IMG/VR virus record: IMGVR_UViG_3300010334_000190
Span: 1-30,213 of that record
Direction: 5' to 3' (one strand)
Origin: a virus
Lineage: Duplodnaviria; Caudoviricetes
Length of the DNA stretch: 30,213 bases
Shown here: positions 484 to 28,937 of the stretch, one piece after another
Layout of the letters: each line of letters starts with the position of its first letter
Numbering within the stretch: the stretch's first letter is position 1
Program-made: the position numbers and the translations under genes
Notes under the pieces: model-generated
The model's database searches: none
Told to the model about the DNA's origin: nothing
What the model saw: the letters and a program-made list of their open reading frames with translations, nothing else

Positions 484-509
484 GCTGTGAGTGTTGCAGA
501 AGAGTCAAG
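484..509 (-). promoter_or_regulatory. class II promoter-like motif (leaderless)
   Basis: Minus strand CTTGAC tcttctgc AACACT cacagc ATG; same geometry at 5920, 28399 and 28980. Confidence 0.6.
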
Positions 510-888
510 TCCGCCTGGCTTCTCGGCACGCTTGACGCATCCACGTCCGGTTCGACATTGACTCAAACCAGAGCCTCGCAAACACCGCGACGGTATGCTC
601 GCCGACGCTTGAGTAGAGCGACCGCAGTTGCTCGCTGTCGCCCCACATCGCCTCAACATCCTCTCGCACTTTGGCAATCAGAACCTTGGCGTCTTGGATC
701 GCTGCCGACTGCGACTCCGGCTGCGTGCGTGCAAGCTTCGTCCAGTGCTCGGCGTTCCAGCAACGGCAGATCGCGTCCACAAACTCGTCAAACGCACGGC
801 CGGCGTTGACCGCTCGAGGTCCGATCTCCTGCCTCAGTCGGCTGCGCAGGTGCGGCAGCATTCCGCCCGGCGCGTCGCCCACCGTCAC
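505..888 (-). CDS. hypothetical protein, 127 aa
   Basis: GTG start overlaps the stop of the upstream ORF (GTGA); GGAG upstream. Confidence 0.7.
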   Translation of the reverse strand: MTVGDAPGGMLPHLRSRLRQEIGPRAVNAGRAFDEFVDAICRCWNAEHWTKLARTQPESQSAAIQDAKVLIAKVREDVEAMWGDSEQLRSLYSSVGEHTVAVFARLWFESMSNRTWMRQACREARRT

Positions 889-1187
889 CTCCCGCCCGCA
901 GGCCGTGGTGGTGCATCAGGCGTGGACGACGCGCCGGCCGCCTTTCCGCCACAAGCAGGACAGGTAGTCCTGTGGCCGTCGCCGTGGACGATATAGCCTC
1001 GCCCACCGCAGTCAGCACAGACGGCAGGCTTGGGTTTGGGAGGCTCTGGCGTGGGCTCTGGCGCCTTCTCTGGTGCCGTGGTGGAATACGCAGCCGAGAC
1101 AGCCGCCGAGGCCCGTGGAGCCTCACGGTCAATCTGTGATGGATCTGCGGAAAGAGCCGCCAGAACGGAGAGGATGTATTGCCACAT
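885..1187 (-). CDS. exported/membrane protein with DnaJ-type zinc-finger motifs
   Basis: Hydrophobic N-terminus MWQYILSVLAALS, Pro-rich linker, CADCGGRG...CPACGG. Confidence 0.7.
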   Translation of the reverse strand: MWQYILSVLAALSADPSQIDREAPRASAAVSAAYSTTAPEKAPEPTPEPPKPKPAVCADCGGRGYIVHGDGHRTTCPACGGKAAGASSTPDAPPRPAGGR

Positions 1188-1190
1188 GCG

Positions 1191-1451
1191 TCACCACCCT
1201 TGTCCGTGGTTGACGATCTTGTGACCGTCAGCGTCAACGCGAGCGTGAACGACGTACGCCTGATCTGACGGCGGCTGCTCCGCGAACATCATTGCCCACA
1301 GCCCGAGTCGGGCAAGCCTCTGGATGAGCCGCAGCACGGGCCGCTGTGGCTCGGGCTTCACCGGCGAGTAGTCGGATGTCGCCGCCCACCAGGTGATGAG
1401 CACAGCCACCAGGCCAACGACGACGGTGGATTGAATTTCCTTCTTGGTCAT
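1191..1451 (-). CDS. small membrane protein (86 aa from ATG 1451)
   Basis: TM segment TVVVGLVAVLITWWAA; ATGA overlap with the upstream stop. Confidence 0.7.
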   Translation of the reverse strand: MTKKEIQSTVVVGLVAVLITWWAATSDYSPVKPEPQRPVLRLIQRLARLGLWAMMFAEQPPSDQAYVVHARVDADGHKIVNHGQGW

Positions 1452-1675
1452 CGGTCGTCGCTCCATAGCGAGTAGAGGAACATGACAACGCAGGCACCGA
1501 TCACGCTACCGATCAGCCCGGCAGGAGCGTCTCCAAATGGCAAGCCGCCGGCGAGCGAGCCGATGATGCCGAGTCCGATAGTCGGCACCCAACCGTCAGG
1601 ACACTTGCCCGGCATAATCCACTTTGCGGCGCCGCCGACGATCGCACCGAATACGAGCCAGATGACAAGACCCAT
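1448..1675 (-). CDS. GlsB/YeaQ/YmgE (transglycosylase-associated) family membrane protein
   Basis: IWLVFGAIVGGAAKWIMPG...TIGLGIIGSLAGG...LIGSVIGACVVMFLY matches the family pattern; AGGAG SD. Confidence 0.85.
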   Translation of the reverse strand: MGLVIWLVFGAIVGGAAKWIMPGKCPDGWVPTIGLGIIGSLAGGLPFGDAPAGLIGSVIGACVVMFLYSLWSDDR

Positions 1676-1684
1676 GCGTGTCTC

Positions 1685-2761
1685 CTAGTTGGGTGATGGC
1701 GTGAGCCAGTTGCCGTGGTCGAGGTCGCGGTAGCGGAAGTTGATACCGCTGATTGAGAACGAGTCGTTTCCAGAGAGCATCGCGTCAACGGTCTCGCGGC
1801 TCACCCAGAACGAGCCGTCAGGCTGGTCTGCCGGCCACTTCGGGCCGGAGTTCCATACCGCCCACGAGTTCATACAGAGCAAGCCGTCACGCTTTCCTTC
1901 GTTCTTGGCGTAACGCACGGCGATGAAGCACATGCAATGAGCCCACGAGCCAGACCTGGCAGCAAACCCATCGGCATCACGTTGCGAGGAAAAGCCAACG
2001 CCGCTGCACACTGGAACGCAGTAGCCGCTTTCAATGCTTGCAGCCGCTTCGTCAAAGTTCCGAACCAGCGCCACGTTCTTGGCAGTGTTCTTGTTGGCCA
2101 GCTTTGCAAGCGAGATCCCGGCCTGCCCGCCACCGCAGAGCAGGTTGCCCCATTCCTTCGCCCTGGTGGGGCTGTAGTTCGTGAGATCAGCACCTGGATA
2201 CTGCTGGCGAAAGAGTATGCCGCCAAGTGTCGGGTCTTTGCATTTTCCAGCCACCCAGCGAGCACATGCACCTCCGTAAGAGCCATCGCTGTACCCGGCC
2301 TGACTGACAGGAGGGAGACGCCCAGCGGTGCGACTTCCTGAATACAGTGGTTCAGTTGCGACAAGCTTCGGAGGCTCTGGCAATTCGCCTTCGGCCCAAT
2401 CCACACATTGGCCAACATAGCTTCCCATAGCCCAACCAAAGCTTGTGCAATCGCCTATCCCCTGCTTCCAAGGCCCAAACGGAGTGCCATAGACCTGGCG
2501 GTGAGCACGGTCTGCGAATCGGTAAAGGAACGAATCCTTCTGCTTGGCGTTCTTGATCACGTCTTTGGCTGCGTCTGAGAACAGCGGCTGATCAAGTTCC
2601 GCTAAGAATCTTGCCGTGCCTGCAGGATCTGGCGTATATCCGAACCGGGCATCAATAGCGTCCGCCGTGCGGCGCGTGGCACGTTCAACGAGCGCGCCGA
2701 GGATCGCCATGACGACCACAAACGTGACGGCGCCGACAGACCAGCGATTACTACGTGACAT
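1685..2761 (-). CDS. membrane-anchored papain-like (C1-type) cysteine peptidase
   Basis: N-terminal TM helix; QGIGDCTSFG (oxyanion Q and catalytic C), WAHCMCFIA (His), CMNSW (Asn), GSFWV; start at ATG 2761 preferred. Confidence 0.8.
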   Translation of the reverse strand: MSRSNRWSVGAVTFVVVMAILGALVERATRRTADAIDARFGYTPDPAGTARFLAELDQPLFSDAAKDVIKNAKQKDSFLYRFADRAHRQVYGTPFGPWKQGIGDCTSFGWAMGSYVGQCVDWAEGELPEPPKLVATEPLYSGSRTAGRLPPVSQAGYSDGSYGGACARWVAGKCKDPTLGGILFRQQYPGADLTNYSPTRAKEWGNLLCGGGQAGISLAKLANKNTAKNVALVRNFDEAAASIESGYCVPVCSGVGFSSQRDADGFAARSGSWAHCMCFIAVRYAKNEGKRDGLLCMNSWAVWNSGPKWPADQPDGSFWVSRETVDAMLSGNDSFSISGINFRYRDLDHGNWLTPSPN

Positions 2762-3305
2762 CGGCGGCTGCCCTCGACAGGTCACGGAATGCTGAGACCC
2801 ACGCCGACCGGCTCTCGGGCGTCACAGGACCACCAGACGAACCCACGGCGTCGTCAAGGAACCGATGGACGGCTTCCCGCACCTGTGGCTGGCGAGCACC
2901 AATGCTTTCGCCTTTGCACCGCATCTCGCGGGCGGCGATCCGCAAGTCGTCAAACGCCACGCCAGTCTTGAGCCGTTGATCGTGGGAGCCGTCGTATTCA
3001 ATGCAGTCGGCGAGCTCACCACACAGTGCGGACATCGTCGCCGCATCTTCAGCAGCAGTCGGGCCGATGAACTTGCCACGCAACGAGAACGCATCAGGCG
3101 GTACAGGAGCCGGCTCAGGCTTTGGAGTGCTCGAGCTGCGAGGCATGAACGAGATGGCAGCAGCGACGACCAGGGCTAGCACAGCAACGTGCTTGCCGTC
3201 GAGCGTGGGCATCTTGGCTGTGGCATACCACGCTTTCACCCTCTCGGTGATCTGCTGGCCCGCAAGCACGTAGACGGCAAACGCCACAAGGAGAGCAGTG
3301 ATCAC
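2751..3305 (-). CDS. membrane protein with two N-terminal hydrophobic segments and a helical soluble domain
   Basis: MITALLVAFAVYVLAG and HVAVLALVVAAAISFM, then Pro-rich linker; coupled to neighbours. Confidence 0.75.
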   Translation of the reverse strand: MITALLVAFAVYVLAGQQITERVKAWYATAKMPTLDGKHVAVLALVVAAAISFMPRSSSTPKPEPAPVPPDAFSLRGKFIGPTAAEDAATMSALCGELADCIEYDGSHDQRLKTGVAFDDLRIAAREMRCKGESIGARQPQVREAVHRFLDDAVGSSGGPVTPESRSAWVSAFRDLSRAAADVT

Positions 3306-3664
3306 GTTGACGACCTCACCATTGGGAGCATGGATTCAACGGCACCGGCCGCGAGAGCCAGAACAAACGCACGCAAAGCCGGACGCAGGATTGCCCACGC
3401 TGGATACGCCACGAGCGGCACGCACCGGCTGGCTGTCGTGTCAAAGAGCGCAGCCACGGCGGCCACGGCGATCGCCTTCTTCTCAGGGCCGGACAACGAC
3501 TTGACGCGGTCAAGCGTCTCCACGGCGAGCCGGAGCAGGGCGACCATGAGCTCGCCAAACTCCTGCCAAGTCAGACCGTCAGCCGCCGTACGCCGAGCGT
3601 CGGACAGGAATGACATAACTTTTGCGTCGAGGCCGGCGACGGCGGATGGATGGTCTGATGCCAT
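3302..3664 (-). CDS. hypothetical hydrophobic protein, holin candidate
   Basis: 120 aa with amphipathic/hydrophobic helices; first gene after the class I promoter motif. Confidence 0.6.
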   Translation of the reverse strand: MASDHPSAVAGLDAKVMSFLSDARRTAADGLTWQEFGELMVALLRLAVETLDRVKSLSGPEKKAIAVAAVAALFDTTASRCVPLVAYPAWAILRPALRAFVLALAAGAVESMLPMVRSST

Positions 3665-3710
3665 GCCGCCAGACTAGGCCGGTAGAGTCAAAACTAGACC
3701 GGCTCTGCCG
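3665..3710 (-). promoter_or_regulatory. class I late promoter-like motif
   Basis: CGGCAGAGCCGGTCT-N19-TAGTCT-N6-ATG; the spacer also contains TTGAC. Confidence 0.65.
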
Positions 3711-4446
3711 CTTCACACTCTGCGAGACAAGCTGCGTAGCCAGCCAAGTCAATCGGCCCGTCTGCAGTCTTGTTTGGCCCGAGGAATCGTGCCACCTTGT
3801 CAAACGTCATGAAGATCGCCCAGTCGCTCTCCGTGAGCGGACGTTTCAGCACGTCGGCGAAAGCGGCGTTGATCATGCCGATGGTGCGCCGGAAATGATG
3901 TTTCGGGCCGCCGTATTTTGGGCGTCGGTCACGAACGACATCTATGGCATCCATCAGCAATCTTTCGGCAGGCGATACGTCGTCGTGATCCTTGGCGATG
4001 ATGCTGTCACCAGTCCAGCGGATGTCGTCCGGTGCGACTTCCATCTCCTTCTGTCCCTGCAGAATCCAGTCAACAGGCACCGTCTCCTCTGGCTCTGTCC
4101 GGTCGGCGTGATACTTTGCAGAACTCGCCTGTGTGATTTCTTTCCAGCCAGCCTCTAGCTCTTGCGGCGTGGGCTGGCACTTACCACCGTCGCAGCATCC
4201 GCCGGAAAACAACTGGTCAGGCGTCGGCATGGAAGCGTTGCCGGCCAAGCGAGTCTCCACGGCCTCCCGCAGCTGCGTGTTGGTGTTCTGGAGATCCGTA
4301 ATAAATCCTTGCATCTTTTTCCTTTCAAGTAGAAGTCGTGCAACGTCTGCGGCAAGAGAGCCTGCCGTGCCGGTCCACTGCCCCTGGTAGCGGTACGCTC
4401 GCTGGCGTGCGTCGGCAAGATAGTCGTCTGTCAATTCGTAATCCAT
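3694..4446 (-). CDS. protein with C-terminal DUF6378-like (alpha-helical NTP-pyrophosphatase-related) domain
   Basis: DRRPKYGGPKHHF...FMTFDKVAR...DGPIDLAGYAAC matches the DR..YG.P..F / K..R / D..GYAA pattern. Confidence 0.75.
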   Translation of the reverse strand: MDYELTDDYLADARQRAYRYQGQWTGTAGSLAADVARLLLERKKMQGFITDLQNTNTQLREAVETRLAGNASMPTPDQLFSGGCCDGGKCQPTPQELEAGWKEITQASSAKYHADRTEPEETVPVDWILQGQKEMEVAPDDIRWTGDSIIAKDHDDVSPAERLLMDAIDVVRDRRPKYGGPKHHFRRTIGMINAAFADVLKRPLTESDWAIFMTFDKVARFLGPNKTADGPIDLAGYAACLAECEAAEPV

Positions 4447-5768: not shown

Positions 5769-5919
5769 CGGCCTGATCCTTTCGCTTGAGGTGAATCCAC
5801 CCGTCATCGTCTGGGATTCCACCGCCGGCCACGTCGTCTTCTTCGTCGTCAGAGTCAAACGGCGACAGGTCCGCAGGCGGCTGCGTCTTGGGCTTCGGCT
5901 GTGATCGCTGGCGTCCCAT
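5722..5919 (-). CDS. small basic/acidic hypothetical protein, 65 aa
   Basis: ATG lies exactly 6 nt after the class II motif. Confidence 0.6.
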   Translation of the reverse strand: MGRQRSQPKPKTQPPADLSPFDSDDEEDDVAGGGIPDDDGWIHLKRKDQADGTKTPQRKPRCRRD

Positions 5920-5945
5920 GCCGATAGGGTGGCAGGCGTGTCAAG
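5920..5945 (-). promoter_or_regulatory. class II promoter-like motif (leaderless)
   Basis: CTTGAC acgcctgc CACCCT atcggc ATG. Confidence 0.6.
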
Positions 5946-6411
5946 CGGATGGGCCTTTCTTTAGGCCCTCGTTTGTCAATGGGCTGGCGTACAGCGTATT
6001 AGCTATAGCCGCCACATCCTCTGGCTCGACGTGTGCAGGAAGAACCACTTGCAGCGCCGCATTGGCGGCCCTTTCTACCACGGCTGACACGGCGGCACCG
6101 GCGGCGTCAAGCTTGTTTGCTCGCTCTTTACAGCCGCAGTCTTTGCCAGTGATTTTCTTCACGGCTAGCGGAGTTATCCCAAAGCGTGCAAACGTCTTTG
6201 ACATTGCGGTGCCGACGAGTAGTGGCGGCACGGTGATCCGTTTTGCTGCCATGCCATGAGCAATAGTCTCGGCCTTTTCCATAAGCGTCTGGCAATACCG
6301 ATAGTGAGGAACCTTCTTGGCGACGTATCCGCACCGAGAGCAGGCAAGCGTCTCGGCGTCAAACTCGCACAAGCCGTCTAGACGTTTGCCAGTTTTATCG
6401 TTACCGACCAC
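5941..6411 (-). CDS. Cys-rich tail-associated hypothetical protein (start uncertain)
   Basis: CSRCG and KDCGCKERANKLD motifs; last gene of the tail operon. Confidence 0.7.
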   Translation of the reverse strand: MVGNDKTGKRLDGLCEFDAETLACSRCGYVAKKVPHYRYCQTLMEKAETIAHGMAAKRITVPPLLVGTAMSKTFARFGITPLAVKKITGKDCGCKERANKLDAAGAAVSAVVERAANAALQVVLPAHVEPEDVAAIANTLYASPLTNEGLKKGPSA

Positions 6412-8981
6412 ACTGAATCCTCCAGTGGTGTTGAGACAGTGACAGTTGCATCAACCACTTTGATTGGCCGACCACCACTGTAAATCTGCCTGCTCGCAGC
6501 CATTGCCCCAGGCCCGACAGTGACATTGATCAGATCATCCTTTTTGACGGCTAGAACGTGCTCATTGTCAGAAGACACGGTCCACTCGCATGTTGTTCCT
6601 TCCACAACAGACGGTTGGCCAACAAGACAAGACACTTTTGTGAAGTCACTCGTCACGTACTGACCAAGAGGCTTTCCAATATCGGAAGCCTCTCCAATTA
6701 GAACTCTCGGCATCGCGACTGACTGCACTCCGCCGATCCACACAACTGCAATGTGGCACTTCGTGTCGTCATCGCCGCCGTAACCTTGTTGCGTCACCTG
6801 CACAAACGGGGCCTGCAGCGTGTGCGACAGCGCAGGATCAAGCTCATAGGACGGGTTTTCAATTCGCGAGCCATTTACTCGTTTTGAGCCGTTTGGCTGA
6901 AGGAATACGGTTCTAGGAAACCTCATTAGGTTCTTGCCAAGCGTAAACGTTGACGAAGTGTCTCCAAGGCCATTGCCTGACATTTGAACCGTAACCACAC
7001 CACCATCAGCAGGCACTGGATCGCCGCTAACAGACTGCACGCTTGAAGCTACAGGTGGTGGGCCGTTGGCAGCCAGTGTGACTGAATAGCTTGATGCAGG
7101 AAGTACACCGTTGTACACCCTAGCGTCAGCGTGCTGGGCGAGCGATGGCTCATAGATTGACCTCCTAAAACCACTCGGCGCAATTGGAATGCTGGTTATG
7201 TAGTACGTTCCATCGCATTGCCTTGCCACTCGAACGCGAACCTGAGACCAATTGCCGAGGTGTCGCGACTCATACATAGCCTCTTCGCAGCTGGCGGTGA
7301 CAAGCTGGATTGAAAACTCAGAGAAAACACGCCACCCTCCTTCGCCCTCGGTTGAGTACCAATAGTTTCGGTTCTCTTCAAATGCTGATAACACTTGAAT
7401 TAGGCTGCCAAGCAACGACGTAACGTGGTCTTTTGGATACCATGCCTCTGGGAAATGAAGCGTTCCAGTCAGAGGCCAACACGTCCCGTCAAACCTCGGG
7501 CGATAGTCGTACACAACGTAGACATTGGATTGATGCTCGGTCTCGTTCTGATCCATGCACCATTTGCGAGTCGCGTCGTCTGCTTCTGAAGCTCCACCTG
7601 TATTGAGTGTGTAGACGGTCGTTCGTCCTCCACGGTCAGTCAGCGTGACGGTGTCATAGCAGGGGCCGTTCTCCATAACCCAAAGAAGATCGCCGCAAAA
7701 GAAAGCTTCAGACGGAATGCTTTCGATTGCTGGCACTGAGCACCCAGTCTGTTCTTGTCGAAACAAACACACACTCGACTGAGAGTACGCTTGCTCTGGA
7801 TGCTCAGGAACTTCCTTCATATACGGAAATCCGTAGCCATTCGTGCGGACAAGCTCTTCGTTGCGAATCTGGTTTCCAGTGAGAAAGTTTGCTCCGTAGG
7901 ACTTCGCATTGGTTCGATAGATCGCTGAGTGAGTGGCATTTTTTGGCACAAGCCACTCGCCTAGACGATCGGCGCAACCAAGCATGTCAAACTTCCTCTT
8001 CCTGCTCGGGCAATCCGACGCTGGAACTTTGGCCGTCAGCAAGTACGGAACGTCTACATCTGCAAGTGACTGCGAATAGTGAATTCCACAGAGTGGAGTG
8101 TCGCCCTGTATCGTCACGTCCCACTCATTCCCGTATGGATCAACGTACCTCTGCTGACTTTCGCCGTTCAAGAACGACATGACTGCGTCTTTGTCCCAGA
8201 CGTACTCGCTTTGAGCGTAGAAAGGCTCAGTGCTGGAGGCGTACTGAAAGTCGTCAATCTTGCAGGCATACGCAAACGTCTTGTCTAGGACTTCAACGGC
8301 GCCTGCGTTCTCGGTGAACGGTGCGTATTGCAAATAAACCCACGATGTCCAGTCGTTGTTTTGCAGCCACCCCTCGTACTGGCCACGGTAATCACGAAAC
8401 ACAGTCCTGCCGACTGGGTCAGGTGTCATCAGGATGAGCGTGACCTCATTATTGATCAGCGCGCTTTGAGGAACGACAACGGTAGACGCACGGTCGCTTG
8501 TCTTTGTTTGCGTTCTAGTTTCAGCCTGCTCGTCAAACTGAATTGTGAACGTGTAGATCGGTTCAAGATTCTCTGCGGTGAACCGATCGCGCAGTGTAAA
8601 TCGCACCTCAACTTCGTCTGACTGCGCAAAGCTAACTCGCGCTGTGGCGCGAAACCTTGCCTCGTCAGTTACACGAAACACTCCGATGTCTTCTGGCCGA
8701 GCAATTGAGCGAGAGAAGCCATGCGTCGGCGTTGGTATTGCTGGCCAGCCATTTCTGAACAAAGGCTGAGAAGGATTGTCCTGAATGAACGAGTTTCCTC
8801 GAGTTCCCTTCGTGACAGCCTCAAAGCGAGCACATCGCTTAAACTCGAAAAGGTCTTCGCATGGAGGCTTGCAGCATTTGCTGCATGGTGTCGGAAACAT
8901 GAACCCAAGCGGATACATCCCTGCTGCAAACGCAAACACAGCCCACAGAATGACCGACAGAGGCTCAGTCGCATCAACCAT
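6378..8981 (-). CDS. large tail tip / receptor-binding protein candidate
   Basis: Third gene after the tape measure; beta-rich, Cys-rich; N-terminal hydrophobic helix then CSKCCKPPC; start ATG 8981 follows GGAG. Confidence 0.7.
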   Translation of the reverse strand: MVDATEPLSVILWAVFAFAAGMYPLGFMFPTPCSKCCKPPCEDLFEFKRCARFEAVTKGTRGNSFIQDNPSQPLFRNGWPAIPTPTHGFSRSIARPEDIGVFRVTDEARFRATARVSFAQSDEVEVRFTLRDRFTAENLEPIYTFTIQFDEQAETRTQTKTSDRASTVVVPQSALINNEVTLILMTPDPVGRTVFRDYRGQYEGWLQNNDWTSWVYLQYAPFTENAGAVEVLDKTFAYACKIDDFQYASSTEPFYAQSEYVWDKDAVMSFLNGESQQRYVDPYGNEWDVTIQGDTPLCGIHYSQSLADVDVPYLLTAKVPASDCPSRKRKFDMLGCADRLGEWLVPKNATHSAIYRTNAKSYGANFLTGNQIRNEELVRTNGYGFPYMKEVPEHPEQAYSQSSVCLFRQEQTGCSVPAIESIPSEAFFCGDLLWVMENGPCYDTVTLTDRGGRTTVYTLNTGGASEADDATRKWCMDQNETEHQSNVYVVYDYRPRFDGTCWPLTGTLHFPEAWYPKDHVTSLLGSLIQVLSAFEENRNYWYSTEGEGGWRVFSEFSIQLVTASCEEAMYESRHLGNWSQVRVRVARQCDGTYYITSIPIAPSGFRRSIYEPSLAQHADARVYNGVLPASSYSVTLAANGPPPVASSVQSVSGDPVPADGGVVTVQMSGNGLGDTSSTFTLGKNLMRFPRTVFLQPNGSKRVNGSRIENPSYELDPALSHTLQAPFVQVTQQGYGGDDDTKCHIAVVWIGGVQSVAMPRVLIGEASDIGKPLGQYVTSDFTKVSCLVGQPSVVEGTTCEWTVSSDNEHVLAVKKDDLINVTVGPGAMAASRQIYSGGRPIKVVDATVTVSTPLEDSVWSVTIKLANV

Positions 8982-8982
8982 T

Positions 8983-9711
8983 TCAGCACTCCACGGCAAT
9001 CAGTATGTATTCATCTCCTACCATCGTTAGTGCACAGTTTTTCGTGCCAGTGCCTGTGATGTTGGCAAAATAATTCATGGCCGGAACTGGCGTGCCAGGC
9101 TCAAAGCCGGTTACGTTTGTGACAGAAGCGTAGCTACCCTTTGGAAGTGCGCCTGTGAACGTACCGCGAAGAACTGCTCCGCCACCTGATTCAGCACTGC
9201 TGGAAGCAAGGCGAATGATTGCCCACTTTCCAGATCCTGTTCCTGACTCATTCCATAGAATCAAGCCTTCGCCCTTTGAACCAGACTTGAGTTCTGCTGA
9301 AGATGCTTTGCACGCAGCGAACTTGTCGCCAGCGGACGACACTTCAATTTTGCACAATACAGCACCACCAACAGCCACCCTGCCAATCTTGCCGCCGGCA
9401 ATCGGCTCAACAGCCACGCACCATGCAGTTGTCGTGTCTGTTGGAGTTCCGCCCGTCAGAACAGGCATCTCCTTATACGAAGTCGTTGAAACGCCCGTGA
9501 TGGCAAGGATGCCCCATTGTGGGACAGTGACTGTCGCTTGGCAGTAGCACCACGTATACGGCTTCAGTACCGGCGAGCCTTGAACGCCTTCGGTTCCGGC
9601 ATACGCTCCGAGGACGACATCCGCAGCATCCTGCGCACGGTTCCATGCTCGAGCAGAGATCGCACCGCGCAGGGGCTGGCCTGGCTCAATGCGTCCGTCT
9701 GGGCGTGCCAT
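8983..9711 (-). CDS. minor tail protein
   Basis: Position after tape measure+1; Gly/beta-rich; translationally coupled. Confidence 0.7.
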   Translation of the reverse strand: MARPDGRIEPGQPLRGAISARAWNRAQDAADVVLGAYAGTEGVQGSPVLKPYTWCYCQATVTVPQWGILAITGVSTTSYKEMPVLTGGTPTDTTTAWCVAVEPIAGGKIGRVAVGGAVLCKIEVSSAGDKFAACKASSAELKSGSKGEGLILWNESGTGSGKWAIIRLASSSAESGGGAVLRGTFTGALPKGSYASVTNVTGFEPGTPVPAMNYFANITGTGTKNCALTMVGDEYILIAVEC

Positions 9712-15765: not shown

Positions 15766-15808
15766 ACGGTATGGGCAGCAAGGCCGAAATTAGACCGGGT
15801 GTGCCGTC
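15766..15808 (-). promoter_or_regulatory. class I late promoter-like motif
   Basis: GACGGCACACCCGGTCT-N20-TACCGT; 17-mer identical to 25185..25201. Confidence 0.7.
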
Positions 15809-27991: not shown

Positions 27992-28398
27992 TGCACTCGC
28001 ACAGTCGTTCTTGCCTCATCGCCATACGATTTTTCAACCACAAGTCGCTGCACAAGCGTGTCGTCGAGCCACACAATCAACGCCAACGCATCAAGCACGC
28101 CTTTTGCGATGTTGTCGCAGTCAGGTCGTGGAAGTTTCGGCGCCGTTAGTTTCACGCCACGCTTTGTCATGTGCGACTTTGGGCGAGCGAATACAGCGTC
28201 AATGACAACGCTCACAGGTTCGCTTGCTGGCTCTGCGTCTCCCATTGCGACAATCGCAGCAGCTGAAATCTCTTCGCGGTAATTGTTGATCGGATGCTTC
28301 TTGGGCGTGTAAGCGTGTGCGAACTTTCCACGAGTCGTGATGCGAGCTCGAGGCTGTGGCACCGGATCGCCTGCAACGCTGAACGTGATCGGCTTCAT
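27988..28398 (-). CDS. rusA: RusA-family Holliday junction resolvase
   Basis: G.PVPQPRAR...RPDCDNIAKGVLDAL...WLDDTLV...EKSY. Confidence 0.92.
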   Translation of the reverse strand: MKPITFSVAGDPVPQPRARITTRGKFAHAYTPKKHPINNYREEISAAAIVAMGDAEPASEPVSVVIDAVFARPKSHMTKRGVKLTAPKLPRPDCDNIAKGVLDALALIVWLDDTLVQRLVVEKSYGDEARTTVRVQ

Positions 28399-28424
28399 GC
28401 ACCAAGCATCGCAGCAGAGTCAAG
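28399..28424 (-). promoter_or_regulatory. class II promoter-like motif (leaderless)
   Basis: CTTGAC tctgctgc GATGCT tggtgc ATG. Confidence 0.6.
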
Positions 28425-28626
28425 CGTTCCAGTTCGACACGTTCAACACCTCATTGTGACTCATCACTGGACGGACGCTGTTGCCTTCGTGGATCTCGTC
28501 CGCAGCGTAAGCGTGGATCACGGCGCCGTTGGCTAGGTAGTAAATGGCGACGCCCACTTGGACGGGCCTGAGAGCGCCGTCCAGTGGGCCGCCTAAGAAC
28601 TCGACTGTAATCCACTCCGTCTTCAT
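28420..28626 (-). CDS. hypothetical protein, 68 aa
   Basis: EFLGGPLDG motif common in small phage proteins; ATGA coupling. Confidence 0.7.
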   Translation of the reverse strand: MKTEWITVEFLGGPLDGALRPVQVGVAIYYLANGAVIHAYAADEIHEGNSVRPVMSHNEVLNVSNWNA

Positions 28627-28937
28627 TCGTAGCGGATAACAGCGAACCAGCCACGCGGGCCGCGAGCGACGCCCTTTTCAACGATGCGGTAGCGGCCACG
28701 CATCGCGTCGTTGTAGAAGCAACACGCACGCTCTGCCGCCTCTGGCGTCTGCCCGTAACCTATGCCCTCTCGCATTCCGTGCAGCACTCGGCAGTGAGTG
28801 AGCCGTCCTGTGCGTGCGTTTTCTTCGGCCTGCTGCTGCGCCGAAGTAATGGTCACCCGCCTGGCGTTGATGATCACGTCATCCGCCTGGGCAACACCGC
28901 AGAACGCCAACGCCATTAGCAAAACAATCCGTTGCAT
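28623..28937 (-). CDS. secreted protein, reduced CAP/SCP-like domain
   Basis: Signal peptide ending AQA; AQQQAEENA..G.LTH...EGIGYG...GVARG..GWFAV; AAGGAG SD. Confidence 0.7.
   Translation of the reverse strand: MQRIVLLMALAFCGVAQADDVIINARRVTITSAQQQAEENARTGRLTHCRVLHGMREGIGYGQTPEAAERACCFYNDAMRGRYRIVEKGVARGPRGWFAVIRYE

Follow-up and report, generated by a model that had tools for sequence, protein, structure and literature searches.

How might a tailed phage open its host cell when, at the place where a lysis cassette would be sought, its genome carries a protease and no recognisable endolysin? The question is raised by a stretch of viral DNA of 30,213 nucleotides (Duplodnaviria; Caudoviricetes; positions 1 to 30,213 of IMG/VR record IMGVR_UViG_3300010334_000190), here called the window, in which a block of seven small genes occupies positions 505-3664 of the minus strand. 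An earlier note, made from the letters of the window, had proposed that this block is an undescribed lysis or envelope-remodelling system centred on a papain-like protease. Following up that proposal with fold prediction, locus comparison and searches of related phage and host genomes, we consider it rather probable that the block is a lysis cassette of planctomycete phages, one that would proteolyse a protein wall and not peptidoglycan; lysis, substrate and localisation are all predicted. No publication describing such a cassette was found in a literature search, most subscription journals lying outside its reach.

A gene block built around a papain-fold peptidase

The features of the block, in the direction of transcription, are as follows.

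3696..3710, minus strand: late promoter-like motif, a near-palindromic 15-mer that overlaps the end of the upstream gene (motif counts)
3671..3676, minus strand: -10-like hexamer, 6 nucleotides before the g7 start codon (sequence reading; the same in many close relatives upstream of g7)
3302..3664, minus strand: g7, 120 amino acids, amphipathic helical protein, core gene (locus counts)
2751..3305, minus strand: g6, 184 amino acids, two N-terminal hydrophobic helices, a proline linker and a helical bundle (model with a predicted local distance difference test, pLDDT, of 90)
1685..2761, minus strand: g5, 358 amino acids, papain-family (C1A-fold) cysteine peptidase with a hydrophobic helix at residues 7-25 and a probable short pro-region (fold model and alignment)
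1448..1675, minus strand: g4, 75 amino acids, GlsB/YeaQ/YmgE-like small membrane protein, optional (sub-cut-off match to PF04226)
1191..1451, minus strand: g3, 86 amino acids, core gene, one hydrophobic and one amphipathic helix, C-terminal HxxGW tail conserved (alignment)
885..1187, minus strand: g2, 100 amino acids, N-terminal RAxAAVxxAY motif, proline linker and four-cysteine Zn-finger-like domain, core gene (sequence)
505..888, minus strand: g1, 127 amino acids, soluble helical protein, optional (no hydrophobic segment)

All seven open reading frames were found on the minus strand of the window, as claimed, with junction gaps from g7 to g1 of -4, -11, +9, -4, +3 and -4 nucleotides; an eighth gene, g0, lies downstream of g1 at +21 nucleotides. 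The joined block stands, but what is conserved across loci is a core of five genes (g7, g6, g5, g3 and g2), with g4 and g1 optional. Counted over loci with sufficient flank, with profiles made from these same and in many cases related loci, g7 and g6 each stand beside the peptidase in 61/61 near loci (31/36 and 35/36 far loci, respectively), g3 and g2 in 52/52 (43/44 and 38/44 far), g4 in 50/52 (22/44 far) and g1 in 38/52 (22/44 far). The order of g4 relative to g3 and g2 varies between loci.

Sequence searches of Pfam, PHROGs and the PDB left g5 unrecognised, the Pfam Peptidase_C1 profile matched neither g5 nor any of its 92 close relatives, and a sequence search of the GenBank phage collection found no relatives; the protein was placed by fold search only. 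An AlphaFold2 model built from 92 sequences (pLDDT 91.6) matched xylellain (PDB 3OIS) with a Z of 22.1 and a root-mean-square deviation of 3.0 over 242 residues. Procathepsins and Cwp84 followed, the best 17 matches were all papain-family proteins, and Foldseek aligned the model to C1A peptidases at an E of 9e-9. Residues Q100, C105, H275 and N298, whose catalytic roles are assigned from motif and fold and not from residue-level superposition, are invariant among 92 aligned sequences, and a single N-terminal helix (residues 7-25, window score 2.33) would serve as the anchor, in agreement with the membrane-anchored C1-type peptidase described from the letters. On the model, then, g5 is predicted to be a papain-fold C1A cysteine peptidase with peptidase activity. 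It shares with the xylellain/C1A family the fold, the Gln/Cys/His/Asn set and a probable short N-terminal pro-region; it departs from that family in its low identity (15-18%), its N-terminal hydrophobic anchor, its location in a phage late block and a Gln-to-Cys spacing of 5 residues instead of 6. The idea that this spacing is a defect was rejected, because 90 of 217 motif matches have five residues there.

At E up to 0.001 the family numbers 1,105 representatives, and it is present also in records of 128-226 kb. Among 71 distant relatives, the Pfam C1 profile matched eight, five of them above the cut-off, and no wall-binding domain was detected in the 71 scanned. Family members come in anchored (by hydropathy, 54 of 141 representatives with a full start), Tat-like (twin-arginine translocation) and signal-less forms, as endolysins likewise do. 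Inteins, recognised by motif, interrupt 32 of 150 representatives; 22 have one immediately ahead of the catalytic Cys and 12 have one directly following the catalytic His. Their placement beside these residues suggests that peptidase activity is conserved and needed. The family is an intein hot spot (P0125, P0128, P0133, P0177, P0263 and others), some members having two or more, and P0177 bears an additional intein after the catalytic Asn motif. Long relatives had been considered as tandem proteases or carriers of wall-binding domains, a notion abandoned when the extra length proved to be inteins.

Around the peptidase, hydropathy in a 19-residue window found clear helices in g5, g3, g6 and g4, weak ones in g7 and none in g2 or g1, the last being soluble as the earlier note had said. 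A simple pattern found no lipobox within the N-terminal 45 residues of the seven proteins, which likewise agrees with that note. The 120-residue length given for g7 is right, but the protein is just moderately hydrophobic (best 19-residue window 1.71). We regard it as a candidate holin or timer. Its members have no Pfam or PHROG family in common, 1 of 32 weakly matches Hol_Tox (E 0.02), and a distant form of g7 adjoins distant peptidases (hhalign 90%). A possible resemblance to the LL-H holin motif gained no support from Pfam, PHROGs or the Atlas. The two hydrophobic helices claimed for g6 are present at its N-terminus. This protein is the constant neighbour upstream of the protease, divided into two genes in many relatives; its fold search returned generic helical bundles (best Z 7.3) with no specific match, and one close homologue, from an uncultured phage. 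Modelling the protease and the g6 domain as a complex gave a score of 0.00, which is evidence neither for nor against pairing. The GlsB/YeaQ/YmgE label of g4 survives as a resemblance to PF04226, though below the cut-off (E 0.019; 15.7 versus 25.3 bits), and g3 could alternatively start at an upstream ATG at 1466.

The partner g2 had been called an exported Zn-finger protein. Its four-cysteine finger-like domain is there, but its export would be weakly signalled (best hydrophobic window 0.8); in Blastopirellula and Bremerella the hydrophobic N-termini of its homologues are longer. Across loci the N-terminal motif and proline linker of g2 are kept while the C-terminal domain swaps, being a cysteine-rich finger alone in the window, with no thioredoxin domain, and a thioredoxin in B. 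marina and B. cremea, where Thioredoxin_7 is above the cut-off in two of three g2-position partners. An Alienimonas partner joins a Zn finger and a thioredoxin-like motif in one protein, P0156 is a single peptidase-thioredoxin fusion, and by a crude pattern a finger or thioredoxin-like partner lies downstream of the peptidase in 51 of 80 distant viral loci. An apparent alignment of the second CxxC of g2 with the thioredoxin WCxxC was taken as an artefact.

The window itself is a tailed-phage fragment whose late genes all lie on the minus strand, in the order terminase, lambda-type portal, fused protease-capsid, tail genes, tape measure, metallophosphoesterase, DUF6378 and then the block. A complete sister genome, G001 (42,155 bp with direct terminal repeats), is 91-97% identical to the window over shared stretches and holds about 11 kb missing from it, namely a beta clamp, replication and recombination genes, an excisionase-like gene and an integrase; from this content the phage is likely temperate. 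In G001 the block ends the late region, after the tail and just before the integrase. Another complete sister genome, G005, has a terminase, portal and capsid from other families than those of G001, together with a peptidase copy that is 82% identical; its block follows RusA and lies upstream of HNH and terminase genes, with five accessory genes in between. The block is also found in prophage regions of two cultured strains, upstream of terminase in Blastopirellula (B. marina DSM 3645) and, for one copy, after an HK97-type tail in Bremerella (B. cremea JCM 17758). The proposed lysis position is thus borne out as post-tail in G001 and pre-terminase in G005 and B. marina, but the position varies and is inside the head module in some phages.

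The block had also been said to possess its own class I motif. That term was left undefined; we take it to mean the 15-mer at 3696-3710, which is common to the structural units. Five copies occur in the window against 0.42 expected, and four of the five are just upstream of late genes, namely the one before g7 and those at 15792, 20421 and 25185, which precede tail and head units; the fifth lies inside the capsid gene. Of 79 distinct regions upstream of g7, 28 contain the motif, which is probably an activator site. The same 15-mer upstream of both block and structural genes points to the late co-regulation that had been suggested, late expression being read from motif and position. A scan for the sigma-70 consensus found no promoter upstream of g7; the -10-like hexamer, so near the g7 start, would fit a possible leaderless transcript.

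Missing lysins and host walls

The claim that no endolysin is recognisable held beyond the window. No lysis family was detected among the 40 window proteins, the 51 further proteins of G001, the 70 non-cassette proteins of G005 or 59 proteins from the prophage regions in B. marina and B. cremea. An exclusion test then compared 26 peptidase-bearing virus records with 23 controls chosen by tRNA motif (sets initially of 40 cassette and 39 control records, L227 being left out), in which ten Pfam peptidoglycan-hydrolase or -binding families were sought (PF01510, PF00959, PF01464, PF01471, PF13539, PF05838, PF01520, PF01551, PF00182 and PF01183). Matches above the cut-off occurred in 0/26 peptidase-bearing records and 8/23 controls (Fisher p 0.001), and matches of any strength in 2/26 and 11/23 (Fisher p 0.003), p-values that overstate the contrast because the cassette records are not independent. 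Records at least 90% complete numbered 17 of 26 in the cassette set and 6 of 23 among the controls, an imbalance that works against the observed contrast. CHAP, NlpC/P60, M15_3 and the DUF3380 muramidase were sought with Pfam in the window, in G001 and in the prophage regions only.

The earlier guess of a planctomycete host is supported by locus labels, which read Planctomycetota for 18 of 27 genome loci in one set and 67 of 80 in another, and all three isolate genomes in the 27-locus set are planctomycetes. The peptidase is not a core gene of these hosts, because just 7 of 401 planctomycete genomes match it. Planctomycete chromosomes also contain cassette-like sets that have no evident phage genes around them (L298:7145-9567 and L293:4639-7110 in Alienimonas; L278, L281, L273 and L274), and these are possibly domesticated. 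Lone signal-less peptidase copies (L233:8001-8915, L237 and L234:7998-8933) sit among unrelated genes in Mucilaginibacter and Balneolaceae chromosomes.

In five cultured peptidase-bearing planctomycetes, neither a penicillin-binding transpeptidase (0/5) nor a transglycosylase (0/5) was found, with 10 of 14 controls positive, while the cysteine-rich YTV wall-protein domains occurred in 5/5 of these hosts and 0/14 controls. In a second genome set, transpeptidases were present in Alienimonas and Mucilaginibacter and not found in three other planctomycetes. Since no such penicillin-binding proteins (PBPs) were found in the cultured hosts, an attack on the peptide cross-links of peptidoglycan, one of the targets the earlier note had offered, is disfavoured. 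According to two sources, wall preparations contain cysteine-rich YTV proteins (PMC8567305, PMC12673574). The former describes peptidoglycan genes as absent from most Planctomycetales species, and the latter recounts early analyses in which planctomycete walls were protein-dominated. In P. limnophila most of the peptidoglycan genes are reported to be dispensable (PMC10632474), and what the planctomycete sacculus consists of is named as an open question in a 2026 Planctopirus profile (PMC13450696). That the wall would be disulfide-linked is suggested to us by the cysteine richness of YTV proteins, together with general background.

A probable lysis role and its alternatives

The lysis reading begins from what is seen directly: a gene block, a motif found before structural genes too, the papain fold, catalytic residues and N-terminal helix of g5, canonical lysins not found, and hosts that have YTV domains and no detectable PBPs. 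It is favoured by the presence of the same cassette in different virion types and at both classic lysis positions, and by the partner in its several forms (the exchange of Zn finger and thioredoxin, the double-domain protein of Alienimonas and the P0156 fusion). The range of anchored, Tat-like and signal-less forms, as in endolysins, favours it too, as do the phage C1 peptidases that neighbour g5 in fold among predicted viral structures, some of them bearing the label muramidase, peptidoglycan-binding or Lysin A, and the fold match to the pseudomurein endoisopeptidase PeiR.

In organisation the block recalls the holin/SAR-endolysin/spanin cassettes (SAR, signal-arrest-release) of diderm phages such as lambda, P1 and phage 21. 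Like those cassettes it is tightly coupled, apparently late, post-tail or pre-terminase, and composed of an anchored hydrolase with small membrane proteins. Unlike them, it has no muralytic enzyme, holin family match or lipobox, it includes a cysteine-rich or thioredoxin partner, and its hosts are without detectable PBPs. We describe it as organised in the manner of a SAR-type lysis cassette, while the endolysin and the lipobox are what keep it outside the holin-endolysin-spanin class.

A sequence of events can be proposed. The N-terminal anchor would place the protease in the periplasm as a zymogen, held by its short pro-region, and g7, alone or with g6 and g3, may time lysis via the inner membrane. 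The cysteine-rich or thioredoxin partner g2 would keep the catalytic Cys reduced or loosen disulfide links in the wall; the protease would then cleave structural wall proteins, and g6, g3 and g4 may help to breach or link both membranes. The more specific form of this scheme is a redox-assisted proteolytic lysis in which a papain zymogen in the periplasm, together with a thiol-active partner, takes apart a disulfide-linked sacculus of YTV proteins, timed by a new holin family; we put it forward tentatively, as a possibility that may well prove wrong.

Several observations count against lysis of a protein wall as the role of the block. The g7 protein matches no holin family in Pfam or PHROGs, and a holin PHROG was matched in just 1 of 85 selected neighbours of distant peptidases. 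In the window, g2 lacks the thioredoxin fold and its export signal is weak. In 10 loci the block stands immediately ahead of the major capsid gene, and in L070 it lies between prohead protease and capsid. The closest match in the genome collection (peptidase 87%) is in a Limnocylindrus metagenome-assembled genome, where a 36-kb phage contig (L080) carries the whole cassette; it is likely a mis-binned phage in a non-planctomycete bin. The exclusion test set related records against a poorly matched and mostly incomplete group of controls, and two cassette records gave weak sub-cut-off matches. Moreover, any phage of a peptidoglycan-free host would be expected to lack canonical lysins, and the block is therefore not singled out by their absence. 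Finally, Mur-ligase domains were found in two of the five cultured hosts, and peptidoglycan components were reported to be later detected in some planctomycetes (PMC12673574).

Cassette-like copies without evident phage genes, in Alienimonas (which has PBPs) and other planctomycete contigs, and the lone chromosomal peptidases of Mucilaginibacter and Balneolaceae also weigh on that side, and together they lend some colour to a different role. The block could remodel the envelope without bursting the cell, through late cleavage of receptors or surface proteins that would help progeny to escape or shut out superinfection, with lysis left to an unrecognised gene. The resemblance of g4 to a host stress membrane protein would fit, as would the fold match (Z 17.3) to Cwp84 of Clostridioides difficile (PDB 4CI7), a surface-layer-associated protease of C1A fold that cleaves the S-layer precursor; unlike g5, Cwp84 is a cellular maturation enzyme with extra domains and no phage lysis protein. 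Against remodelling, G001 and G005 show no other recognised candidate lysis module, the seven matches in 401 planctomycete genomes make the peptidase no core host gene, and the five-gene core is kept very tightly. We judge this alternative unlikely.

Improbable, too, is a lysis cassette whose protease cuts residual peptidoglycan or another peptide-linked polymer in the fashion of CHAP enzymes or PeiR. The papain-fold neighbours with lysin labels, the Mur-ligase domains in two of five hosts and the peptidoglycan components reported for some planctomycetes (PMC12673574) speak for it. PeiR (PDB 8Z4H) and the CHAP-type lysins are, like g5, papain-fold cysteine hydrolases, and PeiR acts on a non-murein wall according to its PDB title. 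However, g5 is nearest in fold to xylellain and the cathepsins (Z 17-22), well above PeiR (Z 11.0 over 146 residues) and C39 (Z 10.3); the PeiR target is a glycan-peptide polymer, where that of g5 is probably protein. The missing wall-binding domains in 71 scanned relatives argue against this alternative as well, as do planctomycete genomes in which transpeptidase was not found in eight of the nine tested, nor transglycosylase in five of five. A role of the block proteins in virion assembly, maturation or genome entry, which might be read from the promoter-like motif common to head and tail units and from the adjoining major capsid gene in 10 loci, seems equally improbable given that these phages already encode prohead proteases, that five of the seven proteins have hydrophobic helices, and that the 82% identical peptidase moves among unrelated head and tail modules in a family found also in the 128-226 kb records.

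Neighbouring features and implications

Other parts of the window differ from its relatives or bear motifs of their own. The gene upstream of the block (window 3694-4446; L001:8145-8921) keeps its N-terminus and has exchanged its C-terminal domain, DUF6378 in the window and phrog_1485 in G001, with the promoter-like motif retained at the gene end. An 873-residue, low-GC gene without a family match (6378-8999, minus strand) stands where G001 has a 213-residue gene, a swap that is likely an exchanged receptor-binding or tail-tip region. A small protein with a signal-peptide-like start and no Pfam match (28623-28937, minus strand) stays between PhoH and RusA in both G001 and G005; its C-terminal motif is reminiscent of CAP/SCP domains. 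A second repeated motif (family D9; 480-509, 5916-5945 and 28395-28424) gives g0, a small gene and RusA each a TTGAC hexamer about 20 nucleotides 5' of the start codon.

A phage lysis enzyme informs on the load-bearing part of its host wall. If the block is a lysis cassette acting on protein, phage lysis would extend to bacteria with protein walls, and the cassette would supply a marker for planctomycete phages in metagenomes and maybe a means to open planctomycete cells. If the redox-assisted form is true, the natural substrates of the protease would reveal which polymer bears the load in the planctomycete wall; and because the cassette resides in prophages of two cultured strains, the question of what the sacculus is made of is directly testable.

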